64,000 nt of DNA. Origin: Candidatus Pacearchaeota archaeon. GTDB lineage: Archaea > Nanobdellota > Nanobdellia > Pacearchaeales > GW2011-AR1. The stretch is taken from positions 325,386 through 389,385 of the forward strand of contig JBBACR010000001.1 of NCBI GenBank assembly GCA_041656875.1. Direction: 5' to 3'. A program made the translations under genes and the position numbers. Shown here one piece after another: positions 9,568 to 63,697 of the stretch (within the stretch, counting starts at the first letter, position 1; the number at the start of each line of letters is the position of its first letter). The notes beneath the pieces are model-generated. The model made no database searches, was not told the origin of the DNA, and saw nothing but the letters and a program-made list of their open reading frames with translations.

Positions 9568-9610
9568 TAAAATCAAATATAAACTATATTTGATGTAATA
9601 GCAATAGAAA
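9568..9610 (-). promoter_or_regulatory. class A promoter element (degenerate copy), upstream of T9SS-CTD protein gene
   Basis: taaaatcaaatataaactatatttgatgtaatagcaatagaaa; minus strand carries TATATTTG (-7 box). Confidence 0.4.
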
Positions 9611-9632
9611 ATGAAATTATTTTCAAAAAAAG

Positions 9633-10445
9633 TTAAAATAATGTTACAGATTTTTCAACAAGTTTTTTTCCTTCAGTTATTTTTGCAAATTCTTTGATAA
9701 TTTTACGGAATTCTTCTGGAATTATTCGCAAAACGCGTTCTGCTAATTCATTAGGCAATTTTTCATAAAACACATATGCAAGGCCACAAGCAATTGCAGC
9801 CAATGTATCGGTATCTCCACCATGCATAATGCTTTCTCTAAGTACTTCGGTAAAATCATTTCCAGTAAAGAAACAATTGAATGCTTCATGAACACCTGTT
9901 ATCGAATGTAAAGAATTTTTACGTGTATCAACATCACCTGGTTTTTTGTATTCATAACCATATGTTGATTTCAACATTTTGTACAATTCAGATTTATCTT
10001 TGCAAGTTCGCGCCATGAATGTTACATGAGCAAGTTGCATTACAGCGTCAAGCGAATCTGTATGATTATGTGTGCATGATGATTGTTTTACAGCTTGTCT
10101 TAAAACTGTTGGCAAATCGTTGTAAAATAACGGAATTGATAACCCACGCATTGCTGAACCATTTCCATAGCTGTTGTACGCAGCTCTATCACCGGCAGTA
10201 TTTGCCCATTTTGTAAACATTCCGCCGTATCCCATTCTTGGGTATTTTCTAGCATATTTTTGAATCATCATATCAAATGGACGGTTTTTCAATAAAGCTT
10301 CAGAAACAGCCAATGTTAAAATTGTATCATCTGTAAAACGATTTGCCTTTGTTATAAATTTGAACTCTGGGCTGATATCAGTTTTCCATTCCTTTGTTGA
10401 CCCAACAACATCGCCGATTACAGCGCCAAGTAAAAAGTATTTCAT
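9633..10445 (-). CDS. ADP-ribosylglycohydrolase (ARH family)
   Basis: N-term LLGAVIGDVVGSTKEW and C-term GGDTDTLAAIACGLA match ARH metal-binding motifs. Confidence 0.7.
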   Translation of the reverse strand: MKYFLLGAVIGDVVGSTKEWKTDISPEFKFITKANRFTDDTILTLAVSEALLKNRPFDMMIQKYARKYPRMGYGGMFTKWANTAGDRAAYNSYGNGSAMRGLSIPLFYNDLPTVLRQAVKQSSCTHNHTDSLDAVMQLAHVTFMARTCKDKSELYKMLKSTYGYEYKKPGDVDTRKNSLHSITGVHEAFNCFFTGNDFTEVLRESIMHGGDTDTLAAIACGLAYVFYEKLPNELAERVLRIIPEEFRKIIKEFAKITEGKKLVEKSVTLF

Positions 10446-10446
10446 G

Positions 10447-10761
10447 TTATGCCATTTGTTTTTTTAATTCAGCAATTCTTTTTTCTAAATTTTCTATAGT
10501 ATTTTGCAGTTCAACATTATCCTTGAATGCGTCAACCGTAATTATTTGTAATCCTTGATATAATTTTGTAGCGGATTCATTAATATGTTTCAACGCTGTT
10601 TTTTTGGTTCCTAATAAATTTGAACTAATGAAAGGGTCAATCCCAACTCGAACGCGTTCTTTATAAACAGTATCAATACAGTATGTATCTTGTAACGTTA
10701 ATTTAATGTTATTTGCGATAATTGGTGTTCTTAATGTTTTGTTATGTTGTTGTAGTAACAA
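10447..10761 (-). CDS. hypothetical protein
   Basis: ORF track 104 aa. Confidence 0.4.
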   Translation of the reverse strand: MLLQQHNKTLRTPIIANNIKLTLQDTYCIDTVYKERVRVGIDPFISSNLLGTKKTALKHINESATKLYQGLQIITVDAFKDNVELQNTIENLEKRIAELKKQMA

Positions 10762-10764
10762 TTT

Positions 10765-11194
10765 TCACAATTCAACGTCAACATCTTTTTTATTACGTTC
10801 AGCATAAATTTTATGCACGATATCATAAAATGCAGCGGTAAATGTATCGTGACAAATAATTACAAGTGGTTTTGACCTGCGACCGTCTGCAATTGGAAAT
10901 TTTAACGATAAATTCATTCTTGATGAATTTTTTGCAATTGATGTTTTATCGCCATAAATTTTATGCACCCAAATTTTACCGTTTTTTTTCAGTAAATACC
11001 CATTTTACAGATTTTGTTTTGATTGTAGTATCTTCCATTTCAATAGTTGTACTGATGTTTTTCCATTTATTTGCAGGAATCAACGTTACATGCAAACCAA
11101 TTGCTTTTGCGTAGTTAAAAGCACCAGTTTCTCTAAAAAGTTCAAAATCTTTTAAATAAGATTGACGGATTTTTGGATTTTCAATTATTGTCAT
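10765..11194 (-). pseudogene. 2H phosphoesterase (LigT / 2'-5' RNA ligase-like) split by a frameshift in an A8 tract
   Basis: ORFs 10976..11194 (contains HVTL) and 10765..10968 (contains HDTF, table start is GTG) are offset by 1 nt across gaaaaaaaacgg at ~10983-10990; removing one A gives a continuous ~140-aa protein with two H-x-T-x motifs. Confidence 0.4.
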
Positions 11195-11217
11195 AAGTAG
11201 TGATTTTTAATGTTTTT

Positions 11218-11270
11218 ATCAATTAATTAAAATCAAATATACAACATTTATGATGCAATAGCAATAGTTT
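11218..11270 (-). promoter_or_regulatory. class A promoter element
   Basis: atcaattaattaaaatcaaatatacaacatttatgatgcaatagcaatagtt; minus strand = ...TATTGCTATTGC-N20-TATATTTG...; 23 nt upstream of ATG. Confidence 0.55.
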
Positions 11271-11276
11271 TGGCAA

Positions 11277-12197
11277 TTATTTTTGATAAATTTCGTGAAC
11301 TACAATTTTCATTTTTGCAATATCTTGCGAAACGATTCTTAAAGCTTCATCTCGATTATTTTTTTCAGGATACTCTCTTACGCATTCATCACCAATCCAT
11401 AACATTGCTTTATATGAACGGCTTTTCACAACGTCTTCAACCGTTACATTTAATTTCACAATATCATTTGAAACAATTACATCATCCTCAACAACTTTCG
11501 GTTGTTCATTGTTTACTGTATTAAATGATACGTCCAATGTTTTCTTTTGTTGTTCTAATCTTTGCGTTCTGAGATTTTCATCAATATCATCTTGATTAAG
11601 ACCAAGTTGTCCGTATAAACTTGCAGATTCAACCTTGACTGGGATTCCTTTATAATCAATACATGCTTTTTCATAAATATTCAAATCTTCAACATCTGGT
11701 AACAATGTATCTGAATCAAAGCCATCAACTTTTGATAAATAATACTTTATGACATGATACATATCAGGTCCAACAACGAATTTACAACGTTTATCGAAAA
11801 CATCATACATTCTTTTGTACTCTAACTTTGCAACTTCGCCTACTGTGTTTGCGATACGATATTTTAAAATGGTTTTTATAGACATATACATTCTATATCC
11901 AATTGTTGATTTTGGAAATTTGTCTTTAACTATAAACGAATAGCTATTCTCGCTTCCTTCAATCAATCGCGTACATGTTCCATTTTTATGAAACTTATAA
12001 ATAGAATATGGCAAAGTTACAATATCTCGTACTTTTATAATATAGTCATCCGAATAAGTCCATGGCATATTCAGTATGTGCGCATAAAAGCTATAAATTA
12101 ATGAACTTTTTAATATGTGTAATTCAATACTTCTATTCGTTGCTGCTTGTCTGTACAATTCTGTTCCGTATACTGTCATATTCTTAATTGTTTTCAA
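11277..12197 (-). CDS. hypothetical protein (306 aa)
   Basis: ORF track; no recognised motif. Confidence 0.45.
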   Translation of the reverse strand: MKTIKNMTVYGTELYRQAATNRSIELHILKSSLIYSFYAHILNMPWTYSDDYIIKVRDIVTLPYSIYKFHKNGTCTRLIEGSENSYSFIVKDKFPKSTIGYRMYMSIKTILKYRIANTVGEVAKLEYKRMYDVFDKRCKFVVGPDMYHVIKYYLSKVDGFDSDTLLPDVEDLNIYEKACIDYKGIPVKVESASLYGQLGLNQDDIDENLRTQRLEQQKKTLDVSFNTVNNEQPKVVEDDVIVSNDIVKLNVTVEDVVKSRSYKAMLWIGDECVREYPEKNNRDEALRIVSQDIAKMKIVVHEIYQK

Positions 12198-14486: not shown

Positions 14487-14496
14487 AAATTTGTTT

Positions 14497-14547
14497 ATCA
14501 ATTAATTAAAATCAAATATACAACATTTTTTGTGCAATAGCAATGGT
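14497..14547 (-). promoter_or_regulatory. class A promoter element
   Basis: same 50-bp consensus. Confidence 0.55.
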
Positions 14548-14560
14548 TTTCTTGATTATT

Positions 14561-14698
14561 TTATAACGAATCAACCAAATTTCTAATGTCTTCTCTATTC
14601 TTCATAGATTCGGACGGGTAAACTGGCGTAAACAAAATATGTAAAAATTGAATAAGAAGGATTGCAATAAGGCAACAACCGATAAATAAATCTTCCAT
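14561..14698 (-). CDS. small hydrophobic protein (~45 aa), approximate coordinates
   Basis: Below ORF-track cutoff; MEDLFIGCCLIAILLIQFLHILF... single TM helix. Confidence 0.25.
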   Translation of the reverse strand: MEDLFIGCCLIAILLIQFLHILFTPVYPSESMKNREDIRNLVDSL

Positions 14699-15483: not shown

Positions 15484-15494
15484 GTTTTATTTTT

Positions 15495-15543
15495 ATCAAT
15501 TAATTAAAATCAAATATACAACATTATTTAAGCAATAGCAATT
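15495..15543 (-). promoter_or_regulatory. class A promoter element (divergent with class B element for the plus-strand RIPT array)
   Basis: same consensus. Confidence 0.55.
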
Positions 15544-15556
15544 TTTTACGATACTT

Positions 15557-15589
15557 TTTTATGAATATATAAAATAAATTATTAATATT
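15557..15589 (+). promoter_or_regulatory. class B motif heading the plus-strand RIPT-leader gene array
   Basis: TTTTATGAATATATAAAATAAATTATTAATATT then ATG. Confidence 0.45.
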
Positions 15590-51572: not shown

Positions 51573-51592
51573 AATTTTAAGATTTAAGATTT

Positions 51593-51644: not shown

Positions 51645-51671
51645 TATGCAAATATTTTCAAAAAATGTGTA

Positions 51672-51701
51672 AAAAAAAAGGAACCCGATTGAGTTCCTTT
51701 G
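51672..51701 (-). terminator. rho-independent terminator
   Basis: aaaaaaaaa-GGAAC-ccgattga-GTTCC-ttt; on minus strand the stem is followed by T9. Confidence 0.6.
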
Positions 51702-52364: not shown

Positions 52365-52366
52365 AA

Positions 52367-52939: not shown

Positions 52940-52948
52940 TATATGTAC

Positions 52949-52969
52949 TTTATTTTATATATTCCAATT
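52949..52969 (-). promoter_or_regulatory. class B motif
   Basis: gene-sense TTGGAATATATAAAATAAAGTAC. Confidence 0.4.
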
Positions 52970-54374
52970 ATTTAATAGCATTTATATAATAATTTCGCTC
53001 AAAGTATTTAGTCAAACTTCCATGCATATCAGGACCATAATTTTTGAATGATTTTTCTAAATTTGAATACGATGGCCTTTGGAATACCGTCATGGGAACT
53101 GCAAGATACGATTTGTCATTTCTTTGAATATCGCATAAAATCCAATCCCATATGTCTCTAAGGTTATTATCGTTTAAATCTGTTATATGTTCTGTTCTTT
53201 TAATAATTTCATCAAATACCGTATGATTGTAACATATTGCATGCGCTAACAAACCTTCCTTCAATTTCAATAAATTGGCAGATGATTGAAAAACATAAGT
53301 ATTTAACCAAACGCCAAAATACAAAAGTTCCCAATCAGTTTCCTGCACTTGACACGTTGCTTTATAAATTGTATTATGAACAGACTTTGCATTACGGAAA
53401 ATTACATCATCTTCAAATATCAGGATATTTTTTAATCCTTTATCTTTTGCATATTTTATTAATGTAGAAAAAGATTTCAAACAGCCTAACGGGCCATTTT
53501 CATTTTCGATTGCAGAGAATCTTTTAACCCTATCTTTAATTCCAATTGCATCAAATTCGATTAAGCATTCTTCCCATCTATCTTTACGGCTATCTAAATT
53601 GATACACCAAATTTCTTCAAAAAAATCAAATGGATTGTGTAAAGGCTCACTGTTTATCGTTTTGAATTGTGGCGTTATACCAGCAGCAATTAATTCGGTT
53701 GAAAATGTTTCTTCTGATTCAATAAAATCTTTTATGTATCTTTGGTTATACATTTTAATACAAAGATTCTTATGGTAATCAATTACGTTTTGAGCGTCAG
53801 AATACGATTCATATTGCAATGCAATCATGGGTGATGCCATTACTGTTATGTTATCATATTGTAATTTTTGCAATTTTACATCGTATATGTTTTCATGCGT
53901 ATCGGTATACGAATTTTCATTGAATAATGATATTACTGAATCGTATATGTTTGCATTATAGCAAACAGCATGTGTATACGCAGCATCACGTATTTTTGCA
54001 AGGTTAGGTCGAATATGTCCAAAATCATGAACTACATATGCACCAAAATAAAATAAAGACCAATTGATTTCTTTTAATTGATTTACGCAGTTGCTTATTG
54101 TATTGATGTCAGCTGTAAATTCTACATCATCCTCAAATATAAGAATGTTTTTCAATCCTTTATCTTTTGCATATTTAATTATTGCAACATTCGATTTTAT
54201 AATTCCATCGATGTGTGATTCGTGATTTTCAATTGCCGAAAACCGTTGAACACGATGCTCTATGCCAATTTTAGAAAATTCTTCAAGCGCATGATTCCAT
54301 CTGTCTTTTCGACGGTCTAAATTAATACACCAAATTTCTTCAAAAAAATCAAAAGGGTTTGTGTCTATTGACAT
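52968..54374 (-). CDS. tandem-duplicated glycosyltransferase family 25 (LOS/LPS-type) protein
   Basis: two copies of NPFDFFEEIWCINLD(R/S)RKDRW...RFSAIEN...GLKNILIFEDDV; nucleotide-level duplication also visible (e.g. 53565-53640 vs 54290-54365). Confidence 0.55.
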   Translation of the reverse strand: MSIDTNPFDFFEEIWCINLDRRKDRWNHALEEFSKIGIEHRVQRFSAIENHESHIDGIIKSNVAIIKYAKDKGLKNILIFEDDVEFTADINTISNCVNQLKEINWSLFYFGAYVVHDFGHIRPNLAKIRDAAYTHAVCYNANIYDSVISLFNENSYTDTHENIYDVKLQKLQYDNITVMASPMIALQYESYSDAQNVIDYHKNLCIKMYNQRYIKDFIESEETFSTELIAAGITPQFKTINSEPLHNPFDFFEEIWCINLDSRKDRWEECLIEFDAIGIKDRVKRFSAIENENGPLGCLKSFSTLIKYAKDKGLKNILIFEDDVIFRNAKSVHNTIYKATCQVQETDWELLYFGVWLNTYVFQSSANLLKLKEGLLAHAICYNHTVFDEIIKRTEHITDLNDNNLRDIWDWILCDIQRNDKSYLAVPMTVFQRPSYSNLEKSFKNYGPDMHGSLTKYFERNYYINAIK

Positions 54375-54376
54375 AT

Positions 54377-54595
54377 TTATTCTTTATGAAAGATTGCTTC
54401 TAATATTTTGTTATCTGATTCCAAGAATTCTTGTACCTCAGCATAAGGTTTTAAAACAATGTATATTTCATTTACACCGTTTTTATCTTTTGTTCCAATA
54501 AATTCGATGCGGGTTGTATGTTTCTCTCTCCAGTTATTTGATATTTTACAAGTTCCTAAGATTAGAGTTTCTGCACCGCCGTTGATTATTTTCAT
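54377..54595 (-). CDS. hypothetical small protein
   Basis: ORF track 72 aa. Confidence 0.35.
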   Translation of the reverse strand: MKIINGGAETLILGTCKISNNWREKHTTRIEFIGTKDKNGVNEIYIVLKPYAEVQEFLESDNKILEAIFHKE

Positions 54596-54617
54596 GATTT
54601 CATAACATTATTTTATG

Positions 54618-54920
54618 TTATGGAGTTTTAAGTGATGCTACGCATTCTCTATAGCATGTCCACAATTTATTATCAATTTCGTATAACTTATTAACGTTTT
54701 CACGTTCGTCAGACCAAGGAATTTGAACTTTAAAATGATACACATTTTCTAGAACTTTGCCTGTTCCGTTACAATTTTCGCATGTCACAAAAGTACTATC
54801 TCTAAATCCATGTTCCTCTCGTTTACCACTGCCTTTACACGTTTCGCATAACTTAATATCCATTGTTTTATATATTACTTTGTTGTTGGACTTTCGAATG
54901 TTTATCTGATACTTTGGCAC
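54618..54920 (-). CDS. DnaJ-type CxxCxGxG zinc-finger protein
   Basis: CETCKGSG and CENCNGTG repeats. Confidence 0.45.
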   Translation of the reverse strand: MPKYQINIRKSNNKVIYKTMDIKLCETCKGSGKREEHGFRDSTFVTCENCNGTGKVLENVYHFKVQIPWSDERENVNKLYEIDNKLWTCYRECVASLKTP

Positions 54921-55107
54921 GTTCTTTTTCTAATGCACGTGTGATTTTACTCTTTGGAAAGAAAACCCTAATTAAAGAAACCGGAACTAAGGGTGCCCAC
55001 CAAAATGTTAACCAAATAGGAATATGTCCTATTGCAAATAATGAAACTAAAATTGCAACAACTGCTATTCCGATTGTTCCAAAAAATATGTAATCAGCTA
55101 TTCTCAT
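54868..55107 (-). CDS. small two-TM membrane protein
   Basis: ADYIFFGTIGIAVVAILVSLFAIGHIPIWLTFWWAPLVPV. Confidence 0.4.
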   Translation of the reverse strand: MRIADYIFFGTIGIAVVAILVSLFAIGHIPIWLTFWWAPLVPVSLIRVFFPKSKITRALEKERAKVSDKHSKVQQQSNI

Positions 55108-55811
55108 TAATATGCATTTAAGTGTGCCATCAATTCAATTACGCCTGATGTTGCTGGTTTTTGTATATGAACAAAAGAGACATCAGATTTTGAATTTACT
55201 TCAGCAGGGTCGATTAAATAAATTTCAGTTGTGGTTGCAATATCAAGTAATGATGCTGCAGGATATACTTGTAAGCTTGTTCCTACAACGACAACAATAT
55301 CAGCATCACGTACAATTTTTGCAGCTTCATGCATTTTAGGAACTGCTTCGCCAAAGAACACAACAGCAGGTCTGTAATCAGGTCTTTCTTTTAAATCTAA
55401 AGGAGCGTATCCTATATCAATTGTTTGCGAATTATCACCTCTTAATACATAAACAGGATCTTGGTCTTTACGAATTTTTGTTAATTCACCATGAATATGT
55501 AAAATATTTGTACTTCCCGCTCGTTCGTGTAAATCATCAACGTTTTGTGTAATCACATGTACGTCAAAGTGTTTTTCAAGTCGGACGATATTAAAATGCG
55601 CGCTATTGGGTTTTATTGATTCAAGATCTTTTCGTCTTTCATTATAAAACTCATTCATTTTATCTTTCATCGAATGCCAAGATCTGATATTTGCATATAC
55701 AGCAGGATCATATTTTTCCCATAAGCCCCCTTTGTCACGATATGTATCAATTCCGCTTTCTTTTGAAATACCAGCACCTGTTATGAATACTAATTTTTGT
55801 TTCTTTTCCAT
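55107..55811 (-). CDS. Sir2-family NAD-dependent deacylase/ADP-ribosyltransferase lacking the Cys4 zinc ribbon
   Basis: VFITGAGISKESGIDTYRDKGGLW; ITQNVDDLHERAG; HIHGE; VVFFGE; VVVGTS; the segment between HG and VFFGE contains no cysteine. Confidence 0.7.
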   Translation of the reverse strand: MEKKQKLVFITGAGISKESGIDTYRDKGGLWEKYDPAVYANIRSWHSMKDKMNEFYNERRKDLESIKPNSAHFNIVRLEKHFDVHVITQNVDDLHERAGSTNILHIHGELTKIRKDQDPVYVLRGDNSQTIDIGYAPLDLKERPDYRPAVVFFGEAVPKMHEAAKIVRDADIVVVVGTSLQVYPAASLLDIATTTEIYLIDPAEVNSKSDVSFVHIQKPATSGVIELMAHLNAY

Positions 55812-56290
55812 TATTCTAAATTTTGTGTTATTACCGATATTGACTTAAGTGATTCAATCAACGCTTCTCTTGCTGGTAAATGTTTCCTACATGTGTATGT
55901 AATTGATAAAAATCCTAATATAAATTGTAAAGAATATTTTTCAGTTGACAATTTTGCTAGAATGTCATTGCATTCTTCGTATTTTTTTTCAATACATAAA
56001 TCATCAAGTCTATCCATTACAAAATCTAATACACGTGCAGTACTTTCCATTGAAATAATGCAATCTAGCATTATGTAAAATGCTTTTGTTTTATCTTCGA
56101 TACTTAAATCCGATTTATCTTCTTTATACATTGGATTATTTGGGTCAATGCATAAGTCAATTTCTCTGATTAAACCGCATGCTTCACGCCATGTGTATTC
56201 GTTTGTTTGTTCACCAATATTATTTGCAATATGTTCTAGAAACTTTTTTGTTTCTAGCAGTACCATATTTAGATGTTCGTTATTCTTCAT
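55811..56290 (-). CDS. hypothetical protein
   Basis: ORF track 159 aa. Confidence 0.4.
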   Translation of the reverse strand: MKNNEHLNMVLLETKKFLEHIANNIGEQTNEYTWREACGLIREIDLCIDPNNPMYKEDKSDLSIEDKTKAFYIMLDCIISMESTARVLDFVMDRLDDLCIEKKYEECNDILAKLSTEKYSLQFILGFLSITYTCRKHLPAREALIESLKSISVITQNLE

Positions 56291-56669
56291 CGTTATTCTT
56301 TAATTTTCTCAACTCGAGTATTCGCATATTAGGATTATTATTAATTTCTTGTTTTATCCAATCAGCATATTGTGCAGCAGTTTCTACTGAATCGAAATAC
56401 AAACAAATTGACTTTGCATCTTCATTATTGCCTTGACATATGAGGATATATGGTCTCAAATAAACCGCATTATCAATAATTGCATAATAAGATAGCGCGC
56501 CAATATCTTCTAATGTAACTTTTGTTTGCTTAAACGTTACATCATTTTGTTTATTTTTTATGCATTCAGTTAATTTTGTTGTATAGATAGTATGCAAAGA
56601 TTTATCATGAACTTCGATATCTCTAATATTATTTACATTAATGTATCTTTTAAATAGCATCCTTTTCAA
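56280..56669 (-). CDS. hypothetical protein
   Basis: ORF track 129 aa. Confidence 0.4.
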   Translation of the reverse strand: MKRMLFKRYINVNNIRDIEVHDKSLHTIYTTKLTECIKNKQNDVTFKQTKVTLEDIGALSYYAIIDNAVYLRPYILICQGNNEDAKSICLYFDSVETAAQYADWIKQEINNNPNMRILELRKLKNNDEE

Positions 56670-57057
56670 TTATTAAGTTATTTTTTAAATTATCTATCAT
56701 GTATCGACGCCATAATCTGCTAACAGGATGTGGCAATTTTTTATGTTCAACTTTTAAATCGTCAAGTGCTTTACCAGCAGTTTTACCACATGCAATTATT
56801 GCAAACCAAGAATCTCTATCAATTGCTGATTTAACCCATTTTAAATCAACAGGAAACTTTGTATCTTTGTTATCTGCAATTTCTGGAGTTGTTTCAGTAA
56901 ACCAAAGTTCAAAGTGTTCTTCAAGAGAAAGCAGTCTTGAATATGTTGCGTTTTTTCGATTGATGATTCTTGTATCATATACAGGAATCTTGAACTTGTT
57001 TTTACGATATCCGTAAAAATTTTCAAGTACAATAAGTATTTTTGGTTTTTCTTCCAT
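56650..57057 (-). CDS. hypothetical protein
   Basis: ORF track 135 aa. Confidence 0.4.
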   Translation of the reverse strand: MEEKPKILIVLENFYGYRKNKFKIPVYDTRIINRKNATYSRLLSLEEHFELWFTETTPEIADNKDTKFPVDLKWVKSAIDRDSWFAIIACGKTAGKALDDLKVEHKKLPHPVSRLWRRYMIDNLKNNLIIEKDAI

Positions 57058-57275
57058 TACGCAATAAGTAATACTTTTGATGCAATTCTTTCAACATTTT
57101 CAATATTTGTTTCTTTTGCAGTTTTTAATGCTGCAAGATAACCGTCAATGTATCCTTCTTTGGCAGCACCAAATTTATCTTCGGAAATTCTACCGACAGC
57201 ATGCAATCCGTTATATGTATGAAATTTATCTTCAGCGTATTGCCATGCAACAAATTCTAGTTCATCATTCTCCAT
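57057..57275 (-). CDS. hypothetical small protein, start revised to MENDELEF
   Basis: class B motif cattgtgtatataaaataaaattgatacc lies immediately 5' of this ATG; table's longer N-terminus would overlap the motif and the GATase 3' end. Confidence 0.4.
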   Translation of the reverse strand: MENDELEFVAWQYAEDKFHTYNGLHAVGRISEDKFGAAKEGYIDGYLAALKTAKETNIENVERIASKVLLIA

Positions 57276-57283
57276 TGGTATCA

Positions 57284-57305
57284 ATTTTATTTTATATACA
57301 CAATG
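57284..57305 (-). promoter_or_regulatory. class B motif (inside 3' end of GATase gene)
   Basis: gene-sense CATTGTGTATATAAAATAAAATTGATACC-ATG. Confidence 0.4.
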
Positions 57306-57912
57306 AAGGAAAAGTTTTACTATACAGCCATTCAGAAACAATTCTTTCGCAAAAAGTACCTCTTACTTCTTCACGTTCAGGATGCCATTGAACAAGCATA
57401 CAATTATCGCCTGCCCACGCCATTTCTATAATGCCATCATCTGATTTTGCAACAGGATGGATATCTTGTCCCAATGTTTTTATTGCTTGATGATGTCTTG
57501 AATTAACTTCAGCTTGCATTCCATTGATTGCAATAAAATGCCAACTTGATTCTAAAGATGGCAGTGGCTCATTTGCAATTGCAACTGCATTTGCCGAATG
57601 ATTTATTTTTGTTTGCGTTTCATTTAAAATGTCACCGTATAAAGTGCCGCCTAATGCAACATTTACTAATTGTAAACCACGGCAGATACCAAGAACTGGG
57701 ATATTTCCGTATGCTGAACCAAACCATTTTGTTTCTCTTAAATCTCGTTCAAAATTTTTACCAATATCAGCTCCACCACAAAGTAATAACATGCTAAATT
57801 TATCGGTTATGAGTTCATCTTCGTTAAGTACATGGTATTTCAATTGACGGTATTCAAGCCATTCTAAATAATTATTTAGTTGATTCTTATGTGGCGGTGC
57901 AACTGCTATCAT
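57292..57912 (-). CDS. class I glutamine amidotransferase (PuuD / peptidase C26-like)
   Basis: LGICRGLQL (Cys nucleophile), NSRHHQAI, VQWHPE (His-Glu). Confidence 0.7.
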   Translation of the reverse strand: MIAVAPPHKNQLNNYLEWLEYRQLKYHVLNEDELITDKFSMLLLCGGADIGKNFERDLRETKWFGSAYGNIPVLGICRGLQLVNVALGGTLYGDILNETQTKINHSANAVAIANEPLPSLESSWHFIAINGMQAEVNSRHHQAIKTLGQDIHPVAKSDDGIIEMAWAGDNCMLVQWHPEREEVRGTFCERIVSEWLYSKTFPSLCI

Positions 57913-57928
57913 TTTGCTTTCATTTAAA

Positions 57929-58801
57929 TTAATTACGTTTTCTTTTTTTTGCTGATTCGCGCATTTTTTGTTTCGTTTCGTCTGTTCGTTTTTGACCTCT
58001 CCTAGATTCTGCTGCTTTGTCTATAGATTCTTGCTTTTGTCTTACACCTCTTGTTATACCTACCAATTCACCTGATAAATATCTGGGGTCATCTCGTAAA
58101 ACTTTGTATGTTTTACCTGATGCGTCTTTAACCATTACCATTCCCTTTGATATGTTTACCAATTCCCCCGATAAATATCTAGGATCGTTTTTATCAACTT
58201 GTAATGTACAGCCATTGGCATCTTTAACAGTTACTCTTCCTTTAGCAATACCCACCAATTCGCCAGATAAATATCTTACGTCGTCAGGTAATACAGAAAA
58301 ATAATTGCCATTTGCATCTTTAACACTTATACGTCCTTTAAACATGTGAATTAATTCACCAGATACATATCTTGGATCATTTTTATCAACCATATGATAA
58401 TTATTATCTGAATCTAATGTTGGCACAATGCCTTTTGTTACGCCAACAAAATTCCCAGATAAATACAGTTCGCTGTCTTTACGTAATAACTTCACATTTC
58501 CGTTAGCATCCTTTAGTGATGCTGCACCTGTTGTGTGAAAGCCAACAGATGGAATATGATAGTTTTCATTTAAAGGATCTTCAATCCATTTTGAAATTTC
58601 TTCAGTTTCAAACTTAATAGCATCTTCTCTACAAATAAAGTCATCTTTAATAATTTCCTTTTTTAGTTTTGTTTTGTTAGGTTTCCAAGTTTTCATTGAA
58701 CCTAAATAAGAATCTAGAGTAGGATGAACTTCTGAACTTCTGGAACCTATATAGAATTGTTTAGTTTCTATATGTTCAATTCGATATACATAATGATACA
58801 T
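57929..58801 (-). CDS. GIY-YIG homing endonuclease with tandem 29-aa repeats, paralog of 37266..38444
   Basis: MYHYVYRIEHIETKQFYIGS; repeats VKDANGNxxxVxxDDxRYLSGELVGIxKG x5-6. Confidence 0.6.
   Translation of the reverse strand: MYHYVYRIEHIETKQFYIGSRSSEVHPTLDSYLGSMKTWKPNKTKLKKEIIKDDFICREDAIKFETEEISKWIEDPLNENYHIPSVGFHTTGAASLKDANGNVKLLRKDSELYLSGNFVGVTKGIVPTLDSDNNYHMVDKNDPRYVSGELIHMFKGRISVKDANGNYFSVLPDDVRYLSGELVGIAKGRVTVKDANGCTLQVDKNDPRYLSGELVNISKGMVMVKDASGKTYKVLRDDPRYLSGELVGITRGVRQKQESIDKAAESRRGQKRTDETKQKMRESAKKRKRN
58036..58516 (-). repeat. five to six tandem ~87-bp coding repeats in paralogous GIY-YIG gene
   Basis: VKDANGNYFSVLPDDVRYLSGELVGIAKG-type units. Confidence 0.55.
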
Positions 58802-58818
58802 ACATTTAAATATTTTTA

Positions 58819-58841
58819 ATTATTTATATTATATATCAAAA
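58819..58841 (-). promoter_or_regulatory. class B motif upstream of GIY-YIG HEG
   Basis: gene-sense TTTTGATATATAATATAAATAATTAAAAA. Confidence 0.4.
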
Positions 58842-58844
58842 TTG

Positions 58845-58881
58845 ATATAGGAATAAATTAAAGTTTAATATAGGAATAAAT
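58845..58881. repeat. 16-bp direct repeat x2 (TATAGGAATAAATTAA) between HEG promoter and GATase-fragment
   Basis: gatataggaataaattaaagtttaatataggaataaattaagtc. Confidence 0.5.
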
Positions 58882-58885
58882 TAAG

Positions 58886-58984
58886 TCTGTCGATTCTAAG
58901 ATATGATATTTTAAACCTAAAGAATCAAGCCAACCTGTATAATTTGGCATTTGGTTTGGATGTGCAGGTGCAAGTGCTATCATA
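58886..58984 (-). pseudogene. orphan 5' fragment (~33 codons) homologous to the start of the GATase gene
   Basis: minus-strand ATGATAGCACTTGCACCTGCACATCCAAACCAA... = MIALAPAHPNQMPNYTGWLDSLGLKYHILE vs GATase MIAVAPPHKNQLNNYLEWLEYRQLKYHVLNE; ATG overlaps stop of 58980..59699 (TAAGATATG). Confidence 0.45.
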
Positions 58985-59699
58985 TCTTAGGTGCTAATTT
59001 TCTAAAATCTGTTAATAATAACTTATGTGTTTGTTTGAATCTTGATTCCCAAACCGACCAATCCAATGGCATTTTTTTAATAGCATCAAGATAACAGTTT
59101 GCTGACGAATAATCAACTATTTTACCATGTGTTGCAATTTGAATACCAAATTCAACAATTCTTAAAGAATGAAACAATGATTTTTGTGCAATGTACGTTT
59201 CGCCGTCTGCAAGTTTCTTTTTTGCTTTAACCCATGAATTGCTTGATACTTGTGAAATTGAATGACGGAGTTTTTGCAAATTTAATTCAAATGTGTAATC
59301 GGTCTTTCCTTCAGACATGTGAGCAGGTAAAAAGAAGCATTCAAGTGCTGAAATTTCATGATTATCCAAATCTTTTTGAAAACCTTTTTCATTATAAAAT
59401 GTGAAGTTGTTTCCTAAAATTTCAACAGAATCAATTTTTTCTTCTGGTTGTTCACGAACAACAATAAAGTCAAAATCCGATTCGGATGTGTTACACCCAT
59501 ATACCCGTGAACCATATTGGAATTTTGAAATAACTTTTGGGTTATCTAAACCGGGTTCGCATGTTAATTCTAATTGTGGCGCATCAACTATTGTGTTGAA
59601 TATGAAATCTGCAATTGCAGTTTCAACTGCTGTTTCATTAGCCGCTGGCCTTCTTGCAGCATTCCACAATGCTTGTTTTTGTTCCTTTGTAAATATCAT
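58980..59699 (-). CDS. Pol-beta-superfamily nucleotidyltransferase
   Basis: GSRVYGCNTSESDFDFIVV = hG[GS]x9-13Dh[DE]h NTase signature. Confidence 0.45.
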   Translation of the reverse strand: MIFTKEQKQALWNAARRPAANETAVETAIADFIFNTIVDAPQLELTCEPGLDNPKVISKFQYGSRVYGCNTSESDFDFIVVREQPEEKIDSVEILGNNFTFYNEKGFQKDLDNHEISALECFFLPAHMSEGKTDYTFELNLQKLRHSISQVSSNSWVKAKKKLADGETYIAQKSLFHSLRIVEFGIQIATHGKIVDYSSANCYLDAIKKMPLDWSVWESRFKQTHKLLLTDFRKLAPKI

Positions 59700-59911
59700 A
59701 ACTCAATGTCCTTTCTTTTTATCATGTAATCTGAAATTTCTTTCTTCGTAATTCTTTTTTCAGATAGCAATTGTTTAATGAATGAATCAAAACAATGTAT
59801 CTGATATTTTCGCAATTCATTTGATAAATTAAGTTTAACACACGTCTTTCTTAATCTGTTGATATCTTTTTGATAAGCAGATCTTGTTTTACTTTCAGAA
59901 TCGTTTTTCAT
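59696..59911 (-). CDS. hypothetical small basic protein
   Basis: ORF track 71 aa. Confidence 0.35.
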   Translation of the reverse strand: MKNDSESKTRSAYQKDINRLRKTCVKLNLSNELRKYQIHCFDSFIKQLLSEKRITKKEISDYMIKRKDIEL

Positions 59912-59914
59912 ATT

Positions 59915-60370
59915 CTATTTTTCTCTATGTTTATGTAATTCTTTAATACGCTTTTCTTTTTCATTTTGAGTTTCATCATGAACTGCTTGCATTTCAGCGT
60001 CAAGTTTTGTTATAACAGCAATACCGAAAGGCCAACTGTTTATTTTGTTGCAAAGTGTCAGACCATTTTTTTCAGCAAAATCGGCAATTGCATTATCAAT
60101 AACTTCACCTATATGAAAACATGCATTGCTGTTAAAACCGTTTAATGGCAACTGTTTATCAATACTTATTTCGTCAGTATATAAGCAATCAACAGAATAT
60201 TTTTTATCAGGTCCAAATCCTCCCTTTGCAAGATACACGTCAAATTCAACATATACATTTAAAATTTTGCCAGTGTATCTATGAGATAGAGTTCTTGTAT
60301 TTTCAATCTCTGTAAATTTATCAATAAAACCGATACGAATATTCGATTCTTTATATTCTTTATAATCCAT
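59915..60370 (-). CDS. hypothetical protein
   Basis: ORF track 151 aa. Confidence 0.4.
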   Translation of the reverse strand: MDYKEYKESNIRIGFIDKFTEIENTRTLSHRYTGKILNVYVEFDVYLAKGGFGPDKKYSVDCLYTDEISIDKQLPLNGFNSNACFHIGEVIDNAIADFAEKNGLTLCNKINSWPFGIAVITKLDAEMQAVHDETQNEKEKRIKELHKHREK

Positions 60371-60373
60371 GAT

Positions 60374-60955
60374 TTAAAGTATTACATTCCACATTAAGTT
60401 ACAATAATTACAGCATTTGTCAATTTCGCTTTTTCGCATGAATTGCAATAAAGGTCGACCCATGTGTGCAGTTTCTTCCGCAATTTCATCAAGTTCATGA
60501 AATTGTCCACAATCATCACATTTAACTTTAATTGTTGATTTATCAGGCAATAAGTCCATGTAAACGGATCTTGGAACATCTAGCCAAACATCGCCGAAAA
60601 ATTTAACACCTACGTTTACACCGTCTTTGATGTAAAGCATGTCTTTAAAAATTCGAGATTCATCGTATGTAATGATATCTTGATTTGGAAATTTTGCAAT
60701 TAACGCTTCATGAATCTGTTCAATTGTTTGAAATCTTCCAGTTGAACTTCCAATATGCAAACAACAATAGCCATCTTTTCTTTCAAGATATTTTAATTCA
60801 GCTTCATCTGTTATAATACGTTGCAAATCCTCGCCGTGTGAAGTACTCAAAGCATGTATCTTTGGCACATAGTTTTCAATTTCAATGTAACGGCAATAAA
60901 AATGTTCAGCATCGGCGCATTGTCCTTCGAATGTTGATATGTTTCCCACAATCAT
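60374..60955 (-). CDS. hypothetical Cys-rich protein
   Basis: CDDCGQFHELDE...CCNYCN. Confidence 0.4.
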   Translation of the reverse strand: MIVGNISTFEGQCADAEHFYCRYIEIENYVPKIHALSTSHGEDLQRIITDEAELKYLERKDGYCCLHIGSSTGRFQTIEQIHEALIAKFPNQDIITYDESRIFKDMLYIKDGVNVGVKFFGDVWLDVPRSVYMDLLPDKSTIKVKCDDCGQFHELDEIAEETAHMGRPLLQFMRKSEIDKCCNYCNLMWNVIL

Positions 60956-61269
60956 TATATTACTGTTTTAGCGTTAATAAACATTTCAACTTGATTGTCA
61001 ACAATCATATGATGTAAATCACTAACATAAAAATGTTGTTGACCAAATAATTCGTTTGTTGCTTTTAGCGTAATTTTATAATCGTCAGCAACTTTATATT
61101 TTGATTCTGTTATTGTTGCAGGAACAATGTAATCAGGATCGTTACTGCTTGTGTGGGGAAAAAACCCAAATGCGGTACGAATAGGTTTCATTGGAACCAT
61201 GAATAAACATTTGTCGATTCCAATTTCAAGAATTTTACTTGTCAAATCGTGTAATTTGTGGTCAGTCAT
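60955..61269 (-). CDS. hypothetical protein
   Basis: ORF track 104 aa; class A promoter upstream. Confidence 0.4.
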   Translation of the reverse strand: MTDHKLHDLTSKILEIGIDKCLFMVPMKPIRTAFGFFPHTSSNDPDYIVPATITESKYKVADDYKITLKATNELFGQQHFYVSDLHHMIVDNQVEMFINAKTVI

Positions 61270-61280
61270 AATTTTTTAAA

Positions 61281-61334
61281 TTGTTAATTGTTTAAAATCA
61301 AATATACAACATTAATGCAGCAATAGCAATGGTT
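61281..61334 (-). promoter_or_regulatory. class A promoter element (subtype 2)
   Basis: same consensus. Confidence 0.55.
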
Positions 61335-61339
61335 TATGA

Positions 61340-61663
61340 TTAATATTTTGCAGGAAATGTTTTTCCTTTGAAAAACGGAACAATGTACATTTTAGCGTGC
61401 GGTACGTTTTCGTGTTTTCTTTCAAGATCCGATATTGCTTGTTCTGCACTTTCAATTGATTTGTAATTTTTATACTTATAGAATTCACCGGTTGTTTCGT
61501 TTCCGATAACAATTGTGTGCGTAAATAATGCATATTCTGCAAGATCTTTTTTCGATTGTTCTAATCGTTTTTCTTGTTCTTTTTTATCAATTTTGTTTGG
61601 AACTTCATTTGCAATAAATAAAGTTGAATGATTCCATATCATTCTATAAAAATACATGCTCAT
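61340..61663 (-). CDS. hypothetical protein
   Basis: ORF track 107 aa (preferred over overlapping 61312..61542). Confidence 0.4.
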   Translation of the reverse strand: MSMYFYRMIWNHSTLFIANEVPNKIDKKEQEKRLEQSKKDLAEYALFTHTIVIGNETTGEFYKYKNYKSIESAEQAISDLERKHENVPHAKMYIVPFFKGKTFPAKY

Positions 61664-61666: not shown

Positions 61667-61876
61667 TTATGAATTAATGATTTGACTTTTAAAGATATAT
61701 TTACTGTTTAACATTAATGGAGGAAAATAAATTGGCCTTCCGTTTAAATCGGTAATATTTCCAATCGTTAAATAATTAATGTTATCTTGCCAAATTGTTC
61801 CTAAATAAATTTTATCACTTCCAATACTTGGGTGAAATTTGATTTGTTTTTGGTTTTGGTTTTTGCTGATTTTCAT
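61667..61876 (-). CDS. hypothetical small protein, start revised from TTG to ATG (MKISKNQ)
   Basis: table start TTG lies inside class A element. Confidence 0.35.
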   Translation of the reverse strand: MKISKNQNQKQIKFHPSIGSDKIYLGTIWQDNINYLTIGNITDLNGRPIYFPPLMLNSKYIFKSQIINS

Positions 61877-61888
61877 AACGATTGTTTT

Positions 61889-61940
61889 TATCAATTGTTT
61901 AAAATCAAATATACAACATTAATGAAGCAATAGCAAATAT
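61889..61940 (-). promoter_or_regulatory. class A promoter element (subtype 2)
   Basis: same consensus; preceded by hairpin terminator. Confidence 0.55.
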
Positions 61941-61959
61941 TTATGATAAAATATAACTA

Positions 61960-61995
61960 AAAAATGCAAGGGCATTTCTACCCTTGCATTTTATT
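61960..61995. terminator. bidirectional hairpin terminator after SPFH lipoprotein gene
   Basis: aaaaat-GCAAGGG-catttcta-CCCTTGC-attttatttc. Confidence 0.55.
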
Positions 61996-62017
61996 TCATA
62001 TTGCAATATGCAATAAT

Positions 62018-62845
62018 TTATTTCACCGGAAATGTTGCAGGCACATTAGCACCTTGAATAAACGTAATTGTTACATTTTTATGATCTTTTAACAATTCAA
62101 CTTGTTCTTTAGTAATTTCAAGTTGTCGAATATGTGTATACTCGGCAATTGTCATTCCCATCTGATTCATGTATGCCTTATCCGCAATTGCTTTATTTAT
62201 TTCCGCTTGTTTACGAGATAATTCAGCTGTTGCTCTGGCATTTTGTGTAAGAACAGATTGATTTTGTGCAGCAGTATTTTTTGTTTCTGTTAATACCTGG
62301 TCTGGTGGCGTTATTGCACCAATTGATACCTTTACTACATCAACAGGCAGGTTTATCGACTTTACGTATGCAACCATGCCATCAAATAATTTTGTTTCAA
62401 TTTGAGTACTTATCATTCGGTTACTTGATAATTCAAACATTTTGTATATACATGATTTGTCACGTACCATTGTTCTGAAAGTCGATTGAACATTATTAAG
62501 ATACCAAGCTATTCCGAAATCCTTATATAATCGTGGAGTTTTACCTGTCTGTATTCTTAATGTTATATATGCGCTAAACGATACTGGCGTATTGTCTGCG
62601 GGAATCATATTTGTAAAATCCTCAGTATACATAACTGGAGTAATAACAAATTCTTGATGGTCGGTTGAAAACATACACCATGTTGAACCTGTATTTATTG
62701 CGTAATCATCGACACCACCATGTCCAAAAATTATAGGTTTATACACTAAAACAGATTCCTGTCCCGGGTCTGGCTTTACTTGATAACAACTTTGAAGAGA
62801 GAAAAGCATGCACGTAGCTGCTAGAATTAAAATTAATTTTTTCAT
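62018..62845 (-). CDS. SPFH (band-7/prohibitin-like) domain lipoprotein
   Basis: MKKLILILAATCMLFSLQSC lipobox; C-terminal QVLTETKNTAAQNQSVLTQNARATAELSRKQAEINKAIADKAY SPFH-type helix. Confidence 0.5.
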   Translation of the reverse strand: MKKLILILAATCMLFSLQSCYQVKPDPGQESVLVYKPIIFGHGGVDDYAINTGSTWCMFSTDHQEFVITPVMYTEDFTNMIPADNTPVSFSAYITLRIQTGKTPRLYKDFGIAWYLNNVQSTFRTMVRDKSCIYKMFELSSNRMISTQIETKLFDGMVAYVKSINLPVDVVKVSIGAITPPDQVLTETKNTAAQNQSVLTQNARATAELSRKQAEINKAIADKAYMNQMGMTIAEYTHIRQLEITKEQVELLKDHKNVTITFIQGANVPATFPVK

Positions 62846-62882
62846 TTGATTAAGATAAGAATAAATTGGTTAATAAACTAAA

Positions 62883-63146
62883 TTAAATTACATTGAATTT
62901 CACACGATACAGTAAGCCTTCAGGTCCTGTTTCTGAGTTATACGGATTTTTCACGATTGCAGTTTGTCCTACTTCGATAGTTTCATCTAAGCCGTAGCAA
63001 TCAATTGCGATATCGCAATCTTCAGTTGCTTTGCCACCTGGTGTGCCATCTTCTTTTTTTGTTGACCAACAGTCAATCATTACGTTTGGTGATTTTTCAA
63101 TAATCGCCGAAATTTTGCGGATAGCCGCGAATCTAAGTTTTGCCAT
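62883..63146 (-). CDS. hypothetical protein
   Basis: ORF track 87 aa. Confidence 0.4.
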   Translation of the reverse strand: MAKLRFAAIRKISAIIEKSPNVMIDCWSTKKEDGTPGGKATEDCDIAIDCYGLDETIEVGQTAIVKNPYNSETGPEGLLYRVKFNVI

Positions 63147-63170
63147 TTTGTTTTATTTAAAGATTAATTT

Positions 63171-63413
63171 TTACTTACTGTTAGGTTTTATTCTACGGTT
63201 TAACAACTTAATATCCGTATTTAGACTATTGAGAACTGCAGCAATACCGTTTTTAAACATATCTTCATCAGGTTTTTCTGACAAGAAAGCTTGAAAATAA
63301 TCTAAGCTTTTCTTCAATTCGATAACGTCATCAATGTATTGTTGTTTTAATGTTTTCTCTGGCATGATTAAGATTTGAAAGGTTGAATTATGTATCCTGT
63401 ATAATCCGAGCAA
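63171..63413 (-). CDS. hypothetical protein
   Basis: ORF track 80 aa. Confidence 0.35.
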   Translation of the reverse strand: MLGLYRIHNSTFQILIMPEKTLKQQYIDDVIELKKSLDYFQAFLSEKPDEDMFKNGIAAVLNSLNTDIKLLNRRIKPNSK

Positions 63414-63634
63414 TTATCTTCTGGATTGTTATATTTTACTAATGTTGTCCATTCATCGTCCCCATTGTCATTAATTATAATGTCGTTATAATCAAACATG
63501 CAACCGTCGGCCCATGTTTCAGCATCGGCTTCAGTATAAAACTTTTGTTTAACAACAGTTTCATTATCACAACAATCATAAAATACAACTTCGAAAAGTG
63601 AAGTATCGGTATCATTTATCAATTGCTCTGCCAT
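63368..63634 (-). CDS. hypothetical acidic protein
   Basis: ORF track 88 aa; class A promoter upstream. Confidence 0.4.
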   Translation of the reverse strand: MAEQLINDTDTSLFEVVFYDCCDNETVVKQKFYTEADAETWADGCMFDYNDIIINDNGDDEWTTLVKYNNPEDNCSDYTGYIIQPFKS

Positions 63635-63644
63635 AATTTGTTTG

Positions 63645-63697
63645 TTTAATTAATAAAATCAAATATACAACATTAATTAAGCAATAGCAATAGAAAT
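63645..63697 (-). promoter_or_regulatory. class A promoter element
   Basis: same consensus. Confidence 0.55.

Follow-up and report, generated by a model that had tools for sequence, protein, structure and literature searches.

Background

The early promoters of bacteriophage T4 have been described as 'über' UP/-35/TGn/-10 promoters, in which excellent matches to the host elements are accompanied by "additional regions of consensus" (Hinton 2010, PMC2988021). Here we describe an intergenic element of about 70 nt that occurs in twelve copies in a 64-kb stretch of phage DNA (hereafter the window; positions 325,386 to 389,385 of contig JBBACR010000001.1), and that a preliminary description of the same DNA had noticed as a short repeat embedding a Bacteroidetes-type promoter. 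The element has in common with T4 early promoters the many near-identical copies, the boxes of the host primary sigma factor, an AT-rich UP-like block, consensus positions without an assigned role, a place at the head of clusters of small non-essential genes, and the presence alongside of a distinct, probably late, class that contains TATAAATA. It differs from them in that its host boxes are those of Bacteroidota, at -33 and -7 and with no TGn, rather than those of E. coli sigma-70, and the sequence itself is unrelated. Moreover, a block AATGTTG stands in place of the extended -10, about 17 nt of the predicted transcript are also conserved, in two subtypes, and early timing is in this case something that we infer.

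Two other types of T4-like promoters invite comparison. Promoter-early stem-loops (PeSLs) are cassettes of T4-like phages whose repeats recombine (Arbiol 2010, PMC2839356; Comeau 2014, PMC4122927). The element resembles them as a repeated intergenic sequence of ~70-100 nt that joins a strong promoter of host type to an AT-rich region, in some cases together with a terminator hairpin, and is placed among orphan genes. However, the pairing of a promoter with an adjacent stable stem-loop, by which PeSLs are recognized, was found at only two of the twelve copies in the window (61906 and 51609), there is no poly-G/poly-C stem, and no Shine-Dalgarno site follows. T4 middle promoters, in which the MotA box is centred at -30 (PMC2988021), likewise have a conserved box near -30 and a host-type downstream box, whereas the present element keeps TTG at -35/-33 (TTGACA in relatives), and neither MotA nor AsiA was found among the 113 window proteins that were scanned.

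The promoter recognized by the primary sigma factor of Bacteroidota consists of TTTG near -33 and TAnnTTTG at -7, the latter refined to TAHHTTTG (PMC6847099, PMC7366714, PMC9723704). In Flavobacterium, transcription starts 4-5 nt past the -7 box and the -33 signal is weak or undetectable (PMC6847099, PMC7366714), while the mean leader length in published Bacteroidota promoter data is 33 nt (PMC6847099, PMC9723704, PMC7366714). Host promoters of this type (sigma-ABfr) have ~6-9 informative positions, compared with ~45 common to the phage copies, which are like them in their perfect -7 box, the TTG at -35..-33 and an AT-rich leader of the usual length. The spacing between the -33 and -7 elements was reportedly put at 19-21 nt by Bayley in 2000. 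A promoter that is likewise phage-derived, P_BfP1E6, gives very strong constitutive expression from the host polymerase in Bacteroidota and serves as a synthetic-biology part (bioRxiv 10.1101/2025.03.18.644028); it stems from another phage, is likened to the present element by its description, and is not known as a many-copy family. We found no description of the element in the literature, nor of promoter families in jumbo or huge phages of Bacteroidota. The concept, a T4-style early promoter family with some PeSL-like traits, is known already, and the element itself would be a new instance of it.

Methods

All coordinates are plus-strand positions of the window, which belongs to the genome of a ~425-kb, probably T4-like phage, the remainder (~360 kb) lying outside the analysis. 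Positions within the element are numbered as in Flavobacterium, with the G of TAnnTTTG at -5 (PMC6847099). The number of occurrences of a shared 19-mer was compared with dinucleotide-preserving shuffles (n = 100), and a 62-nt weight matrix built from the window copies was run on both strands. The consensus and information profile were derived from 49 unique copies (12 from the window and 37 further ones). A simple gene map of the window comprised 116 genes, and protein family scans covered 113 window proteins. The pattern TTGCTATTG-N11-TTGTATATTTG was searched among 185,579 bacterial and archaeal species representatives. For phylogenetic footprinting, we used relatives anchored on the helicase gene, with helicase identities of 68%, 64%, and 47%.

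Results

Copy number and anatomy of the element

The 19-mer AATGTTGTATATTTGATTT (minus strand) was found 11 times without a single mismatch, at plus-strand coordinates 11230, 14509, 15507, 30828, 32499, 49291, 50313, 51605, 61295, 61902, and 63656, against a mean of 0.50 in the shuffled sequences, none of which (0/100) reached 11. The weight matrix detected 12 sites in total, each of them on the minus strand, whereas the plus strand had none; 11 copies scored between 56 and 84 bits and the twelfth (9615..9554) 24.6 bits, while shuffled sequence never exceeded 0, and an independent repeat finder recovered the same element families in the window. The twelve near-identical copies of the preliminary description therefore exist, within a few nucleotides of where they had been placed and all in the minus orientation, except that the twelfth is clearly divergent: it carries ATAGTTTATATTTG where the other copies have AATGTTGTATATTTG and ATAGTT instead of AATGTT, although TTG at -35 and TATATTTG are kept.

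Conservation extends over ~70 nt, from -54 to +17, and thus goes well past the two promoter boxes, as had been noted before. It comes in blocks (-54..-48, -36..-26, and -19..+3) because both the -25..-20 spacer and the stretch from -45 to -42 are variable. The consensus reads AAAAtAAtt (-54..-46), then after the variable stretch aaACtATTGCTATTGC (-41..-26), ttcAtt, AATGTTG (-19..-13), TATATTTG (-12..-5), ATTTTAA, and ttAATTgAtAAA. Within it, an A-tract occupies -54..-48 and the upstream box ATTGCTATTGC lies at -36..-26, with a first TTG at -35..-33, 20 nt before TATATTTG, and a second TTG at -29..-27. The AATGTTG block adjoins the -7 box, which is TATATTTG in 12/12 copies.

The ~17 nt that follow the -7 box are conserved in two leader subtypes. 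The first, AATTAATTGATAAA, is present at 11234, 14513, 15511, 30832, and 51609, with a variant at 32503, and the second, an AA(A)CAATTAAAC-like sequence of the AACAATTAAAC type, at 49295, 50317, 61299, 61906, and 63660. These subtypes had been said to cluster in separate parts of the map; both are real, but their clustering is only rough (AATTAATTGATAAA at 11-31 kb plus 51.6 kb, AACAATTAAAC at 49-50 and 61-64 kb). The conserved leader is anchored to the promoter and not to the start codon, because the distance to the ATG varies (17-40 nt), and on this ground a translation signal was rejected as its explanation. A structured RNA leader or riboswitch was rejected as well, given that the leaders are unstructured (minimum free energy of 0 to -3.8 kcal/mol over 60 nt), and Rfam covariance models run against the whole window gave 0 matches at the gathering score. 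The A-tract at -54..-48 and the conserved transcript start are real, and the UP element, factor site or leader suggested earlier are reasonable candidate roles for them.

Match to the Bacteroidota promoter

The -7 box fits both TAnnTTTG and TAHHTTTG (T-12 A-11 H H T-8 T-7 T-6 G-5) at 8/8 positions, and TTG at -35..-33 is separated from it by a 20-nt gap in 12/12 copies, confirming the box pair TTG-N20-TATATTTG that had been reported; the fourth base is A in most of them (ATTG, not TTTG). Transcription is expected to start 5-6 nt after the G, at a T or an A, because Flavobacterium start sites lie 4-5 nt past the -7 box, which is slightly closer than the ~7 nt proposed earlier. A generic sigma-70 scan reads the element as TTGCTA-N17-TATATT, with a score of 9 of 12 and the same geometry as the Bacteroidota reading.

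Among the 185,579 bacterial and archaeal species representatives the element was not found, beyond 3 partial and chance-like matches to the pattern, one of them a promoter-like site without the other blocks in a Paludibacter metagenome-assembled genome (MAG) and two in Campylobacter coding sequences. Since none of these genomes carries it, the element was not borrowed from a host genome.

Placement relative to genes

The window is densely coded, with 95 of its 116 genes on the minus strand and 5.5% non-coding DNA. Nevertheless, all twelve element cores (-35..-5) are wholly non-coding, and each element is located in a gap of 64-155 nt directly 5' of a minus-strand gene, where it heads 1 to ~20 co-oriented genes. 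An ATG that opens an open reading frame (ORF) follows 17-40 nt after the G of TATATTTG in all 12 copies, in agreement with the claim that every copy faces a minus-strand start. At three copies (14501, 32492, and 61894), and not at four as had been counted, the ORF start assigned mechanically falls on a TTG within the leader, with the real ATG 6-18 nt further on.

From the right-hand end of the window, and with the span given as -54..+17 on the minus strand, element 1 (63639..63709; -7 box TATATTTG at 63667..63660, TTG of -35..-33 at 63690..63688) heads gene 63634..63368, element 2 (61885..61955; G of the -7 box at 61906) heads 61876..61667, and element 3 (61278..61348; G at 61299) heads ~20 minus-strand genes (61269..51723). 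Elements 4 (51588..51658; G at 51609) and 5 (50296..50366; G at 50317) are followed by element 6 (49274..49344; G at 49295), which heads the long minus-strand run 49268..32551. Element 7 (32482..32552; G at 32503) has the variant upstream box ATTGCTAATGA and heads the gene of a pyruvate-phosphate-dikinase (PPDK)-like kinase (32486..30867), while element 8 (30811..30881; G at 30832) is the top match to the consensus, with 84 bits. Element 9 (15490..15560; G at 15511) shares a divergent intergenic region with a motif of the second, late-like class, which points away from it toward the plus-strand gene at 15590, and this region is kept in two relatives. Elements 10 (14492..14562; G at 14513) and 11 (11213..11283; G at 11234) come next, and the divergent element 12 (9553..9623; G at 9574) heads the gene of a 732-aa protein (9539..7341).

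A strong hairpin followed by a T run, resembling an intrinsic terminator, immediately precedes two of the twelve elements, namely element 2 (hairpin at 61961..61992, minus strand, 14 pairs, then a T run) and element 4 (hairpin at 51677..51700, minus strand, 10 pairs, then T9). No convincing hairpin was seen at the other ten. A miniature inverted-repeat transposable element or other transposon was rejected as the nature of the repeat, on account of the lack of terminal inverted repeats, the fixed orientation and start-codon distance, and the retention of the core at an orthologous site.

A second, late-like motif class

Most of the other intergenic gaps of at least 35 nt contain the motif (G/A)(T/A)ATATAAATAAA, i.e., (G/A)(T/A)ATATA(A/T)(A/T)ATAAA, which includes the T4-late-like TATAAATA. 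All 15 sites matched by the regular expression lie 17-36 nt 5' of a start codon on the coding strand, compared with ~5 randomly placed sites in shuffles. The sites, which occur on both strands and have neither TTTG nor the upstream box, are at 1507(-), 3865(-), 4640(-), 13109(-), 15563(+), 19642(-), 35440(-), 36988(-), 37041(+) (found by eye), 41643(-), 43709(-), 45943(-), 48327(-), 52962(-), 57299(-), and 58836(-). The motif heads two plus-strand clusters, which begin at 15590 and 37073, as well as a third (21471) to which its link is looser, and it precedes the helicase, RNA ligase, and homing endonuclease genes. It is kept in relatives (L055 12441(-) and 17640(+), L057 15426(+), and L054 15100(-)), in one of which it stands before the prohead protease gene. 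We consider it to be probably a late promoter class, read with a gp55-like factor. No other candidate for an early-promoter motif was found in the intergenic gaps of the window, and the presence of this late-like motif in the other gaps suggests, therefore, that the studied element probably represents the early class.

Sixteen otherwise unrelated window proteins begin with a common peptide of ~14 aa, M-x-x-R-I-P-T-(F/L/I)-(D/E)-(D/E)-(F/H/Y)-(I/L/V)-x-E, for instance MKNRIPTFDDFLFE, the coding DNA of which makes up the repeat families D6, D8, D10, D12, D13, D16, and D18. The respective genes are 2588-2914, 3160-3840, 51723-52364, and 52367-52939 on the minus strand, and those starting at 15590, 15829, 16146, 17236, 17611, 17885, 21471, 21911, 22807, 23485, 23962, and 25195 on the plus strand; most are in clusters headed by the second motif. 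The (I/L/V)-x-E at the end of the peptide is the gp21-type cleavage motif of the T4 prohead protease, and the peptide recalls the capsid-targeting sequence of T4 internal proteins, so that these proteins may be packaged in the head and injected. Late expression fits these capsid-targeting-like N-termini in clusters headed by the second motif.

Host and genome identity

The window is carried on a contig of 425,361 nt that NCBI has filed in a 'Candidatus Pacearchaeota archaeon' MAG bin. This archaeal label is best explained as a binning error of a low-GC (~31%) phage contig, because the contig has T4-like relatives, homing endonucleases, and the signals of a Bacteroidota host described below. 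The window encodes a Rad3-type helicase, an RNA ligase, a polynucleotide kinase, ThyX, Sir2, an ADP-ribosylglycohydrolase, several homing endonucleases, and many orphan genes. By their helicases, the nearest isolated phages are jumbo myoviruses of Chryseobacterium, Tenacibaculum, and Sphingomonas (~30% identity), while a metagenomic relative (47% helicase identity) has, at a few kb's distance from its helicase gene, the Gp23 major capsid protein family and an S77 prohead protease, and the lineage is therefore probably T4-like. No structural genes are present in the 64-kb window, and a tRNA scan of it found none. Sigma factor, RNA polymerase subunit, AsiA, and MotA families were all missing among the 113 window proteins scanned; MerR-type and XRE-type helix-turn-helix proteins are encoded. 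A near-identity search with 12 kb of the window against GenBank phages gave no match, and neither did a 78-nt consensus of the element, possibly owing to low-complexity masking.

The label 'Bacteroidetes-type' is supported independently of the promoter by the absence of Shine-Dalgarno sites, by the protein with sorting and BACON domains described next, and by a BT4734-like domain in window proteins. Shine-Dalgarno-like tetramers precede 5/107 genes against a background of 5.4%, i.e., without enrichment, and the sequence around start codons is rich in A, which peaks at -13/-12 and at -3; an A-rich start context without Shine-Dalgarno sites is the Bacteroidota pattern (PMC6847099). The 732-aa protein behind element 12 (7341-9539, minus strand) has an N-terminus resembling a signal peptide, BspA-type leucine-rich repeats (LRR), a viral BACON domain, four BACON repeats, and Por_Secre_tail, the C-terminal sorting domain of type IX secretion (36.1 bits against a cut-off of 27). 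To our knowledge, the type IX secretion system (T9SS) is confined to the Bacteroidota group, and the protein is apparently exported by the T9SS of the host, which makes it an unusual accessory gene and good host evidence. Together with the nearest isolates, these features support a host in the Bacteroidota.

Some further gene content deserves mention. The PPDK-like protein of gene 30867-32486 (minus strand), which has its own copy of the element, is 539 aa long and comprises ATP-grasp and mobile His domains without the C-terminal phosphoenolpyruvate/pyruvate domain of the ~900-aa cellular enzymes, to which its identity is at most 43-45%; the PHROG label of its family is 'kinase'. A homology search with it returned, besides an identical protein, only cellular enzymes with ≤43% identity and no orthologous context. 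Genes resembling HNH/homing endonucleases contain tandem coding repeats of 96 nt (32 aa), with 8 copies at 37564-38319 (plus-strand gene 37266-38444) and 4 copies at 58019-58373 (minus-strand gene 57929-58801; families D4 and D14). A strain sequence (L026, 18053-18752) is 99.97% identical over 18 kb and diverges below ~10375, where a DUF7487 gene replaces the ADP-ribosylglycohydrolase gene at 9633-10445. Two further DUF7487 genes are present in the window (18858-19625 and 38948-39850), and genes of this family have the appearance of mobile genes of the endonuclease type.

Conservation in other phage lineages

An exact 20-mer of the element was recovered on several IMG/VR contigs and the box pair TTGCTATTG-N11-TTGTATATTTG on JGI contigs; additional metagenome matches outside the element family have only the searched pattern. 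Most of the IMG/VR and JGI matches belong to one second lineage, of which a 155-kb contig was recovered at ≥99.8% identity in several samples. This contig holds 27 unique copies of the element, all on a single strand. Of the 116 window proteins, 7 match the ~200 kb available from this lineage, and essentially all of these are homing-endonuclease-like or repeat proteins; the HNH/homing-endonuclease-like repeat genes are, besides the elements, essentially the sole window DNA that matches it. Judged from their gene content, the two DNAs probably represent parts of related large genomes that are not orthologous to each other, and the 155-kb contig could not be used for footprinting because the sampled DNA has no orthologous genes in common with the window.

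The helicase-anchored relatives, on the other hand, offered an orthologous site. They carry (G)GTTGACATT-N5-TTTTAATGTTGTAT(A/T)TTT(G), i.e., TTGACA-N17-TAT(A/T)TT, and the divergent intergenic region of the window (15484-15590) has orthologues in L055 (12441-12555) and L054 (15100-15180), with the element facing one way and the second motif the other. At this site, TTG at -35 and AATGTTGTAT are invariant across the window, L055, and L054. The upstream box is uniform within each genome and differs between them: the window and the 155-kb lineage both have ATTGCTATTGC, L054 has ATTGACATTGAC, and the box of L055 and L057 is GTTGACATT. G at -5 is kept in 12/12 copies of the window and in 25/27 of the 155-kb contig.

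A hairpin and TTTTTTAGTTTAAAATAA come before many of the copies that the 155-kb lineage and L008 contain. The divergent sub-variant with ATAGTTTATATTTG for AATGTTGTATATTTG (window 9554-9615) recurs in that lineage as well (L011 ~2161, L017 ~8991, and L020 ~93); in two of these copies a long hairpin with TTTTT behind it has the ATTGCTATTGAGG(TC/CA) box as its descending arm, the terminator overlapping the -33 region. Several elements of the 155-kb lineage (L007, L017 ~2371, and L020 ~6290) begin right after apparent tRNA 3' ends (GGTTCGAnTCC...), with tRNA genes and putative early promoters interleaved. More remote phages gave little: the best helicase match in the phage collection (43%) was LR756500.1, a 462-kb uncultured phage with 23% GC, and the 41 kb around its helicase gene held no copy of the element (best matrix score -2), which makes it too distant to inform. 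At ~27950 and ~38420 of this genome, an intergenic string (CGAAACTTTTT) recurs ahead of a TATA-rich box and may be a promoter motif of its own. A helicase search of IMG/VR returned only a relative with 26% identity, without the element.

Discussion

The twelve elements are probably strong promoters for the primary sigma factor of the host, most likely of the early class, in a ~425-kb T4-like phage of a Bacteroidota host. The -7 box, the position of TTG, the host evidence, the placement at the head of gene runs, and the conservation in relatives all support the minus-strand, Bacteroidetes-type promoter that had been proposed at the outset. In this model, host RNA polymerase with its primary sigma factor would bind TTG at -35..-33 and TATATTTG at -12..-5, start 5-6 nt after the G, inside ATTTTAA, and read leftward along the minus strand into 1 to ~20 mostly small genes of unknown function. 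The A-tract at -54..-48 is UP-like and may be contacted by the alpha subunit, as it is located where E. coli UP contacts fall, and the second TTG (-29..-27), AATGTTG, and the AT-rich, unstructured first ~17 nt would add strength. These extra blocks could raise the promoter far above the average host promoter, so that an incoming phage genome would out-compete host genes. As direct repeats of ~70 nt spaced every ~5 kb, the copies can presumably also shuffle the gene blocks that they flank; their uniformity within a genome would arise because such repeats recombine, as has been shown for PeSLs.

Several points weigh against this interpretation. The case for promoter activity is wholly computational, and that for early timing leans on the analogy with T4 and on the contrast with the late-like motif. 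The analysis covers 64 of ~425 kb, and a phage sigma factor or activator may lie elsewhere. The -33 box is ATTG rather than TTTG, and the Flavobacterium data give little -33 signal; the element can also be read as an ordinary -35/-10 promoter of the sigma-70 type. G at -5 is lost in L055 (12555), L054 (15180), L018 (= L052), and L041, the latter two from the second lineage, and the upstream box is TTGACA in the relatives. Finally, the fact that each lineage has its own uniform upstream box could mean that it co-evolves with a phage factor, and is not shaped by the host sigma alone.

In a more novel interpretation, the blocks that the host sigma does not need, namely the lineage-specific ATTGCTATTGC box, the invariant AATGTTG, and the two-subtype ~17-nt leader common to two lineages, would serve the phage as points at which to control its entire early regulon specifically. 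We judge such control rather unlikely. It might be exerted by a booster protein that is injected or made early, by analogy with T4 Alt, by a later shut-off factor, or, as one more option, by a nuclease or repressor that recognizes the common 5' leader. RegB of T4 cleaves early mRNAs at GGAG, and a leader nuclease would be its counterpart in a host without Shine-Dalgarno sites.

If the upstream box is instead taken as the primary recognition site, the element becomes a factor-dependent promoter of the middle type, at which a phage activator or remodelled sigma binds ATTGCTATTGC at -36..-26, as at a MotA box, or a phage sigma reads the whole element. Co-evolution with a phage protein would produce a box that is uniform in one genome and different in the next, there is a loose resemblance between TTGCTA and TGCTT(t/c)A, the MotA box of T4, and the phage has MerR-type and XRE-type helix-turn-helix proteins in the window as well as ~360 kb of genome beyond it. 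However, the occurrence of TTG at exactly -35..-33 in all lineages, as TTGACA in the relatives, points to direct contact with sigma region 4, the 113 window proteins contain none of the AsiA, MotA, or sigma families, and apart from the late-like motif there is no other candidate early motif in the window gaps. The uniformity per genome is explained equally well by recombination between the 70-nt repeats, as documented for PeSLs (PMC2839356). Overall, we find a factor-dependent promoter unlikely.

Recombination could also be the main role of the repeats, which would then be PeSL-like mobile cassettes for inserting, deleting, and swapping gene blocks, with the promoter carried along. Near-identity over ~70 nt every ~5 kb, in direct orientation and flanking small genes without homologues in the related lineage, would be expected of such cassettes, which do act in this way in T4-like phages (PMC2839356, PMC4122927); a terminator and a promoter form a composite at two copies of the window and at many of the other lineage, and only 7/116 window proteins have a match in ~200 kb of the latter, despite the near-identity of the elements. 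The scarcity of common proteins may nonetheless reflect a comparison of non-orthologous parts of large genomes, a convincing stem-loop is present at only 2/12 window copies, and 18 kb plus 15 kb of strain sequence contain no insertion or deletion bounded by elements, the one difference (~10375, DUF7487) being intragenic. Retention of AATGTTGTAT and of TTG at -35 down to 47% helicase identity argues for selection on function and not just homogenization. Cassette activity is, in addition, compatible with the promoter and dependent on it, and as the primary role of the element we consider it very unlikely.

A promoter for a phage-encoded RNA polymerase, whether packaged in the virion or expressed early (phiKZ-like, N4-like, or crAss-like), is highly improbable. 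Huge phages often encode their own polymerase, very uniform promoters are typical of these, and most of the genome lies outside the window; yet the element has a complete host-type box pair with the right spacing, no polymerase subunit family was found among the window proteins, and the lineage appears T4-like (Gp23 and the S77 protease in a relative), T4 itself encoding no RNA polymerase (PMC2988021). Lastly, an ordinary sigma-70 promoter (TTGCTA-N17-TATATT) of a non-Bacteroidota host, with TTTG as part of a conserved discriminator, would suit the generic scan (score 9 of 12), the TTGACA-N17-TATATT of relatives, some without the G, and the archaeal bin at NCBI, but is hardly credible in view of the T9SS-sorted BACON protein, the missing Shine-Dalgarno sites and Bacteroidota-like start context, the nearest isolates, which infect Chryseobacterium and Tenacibaculum, the G at -5 in 12/12 window and 25/27 155-kb-contig copies, and the mis-binning by which the label of this T4-like lineage is best explained.

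As promoters for the host primary sigma, the elements define one transcription class, probably the early regulon, of an uncultured ~425-kb phage, and with a copy every ~5 kb several dozen of them may be present in the complete genome. Early and late units in this phage group would thereby be separable by sequence alone. The T4 strategy of over-specified host-type promoters appears to carry over to the promoter grammar of Bacteroidota, in which the determinants of promoter strength are poorly understood. The A-tract at -54..-48, the AATGTTG block at -19..-13, and the conserved transcript start can be seen as natural experiments on this strength, which is relevant to the engineering of gut and environmental Bacteroidota.

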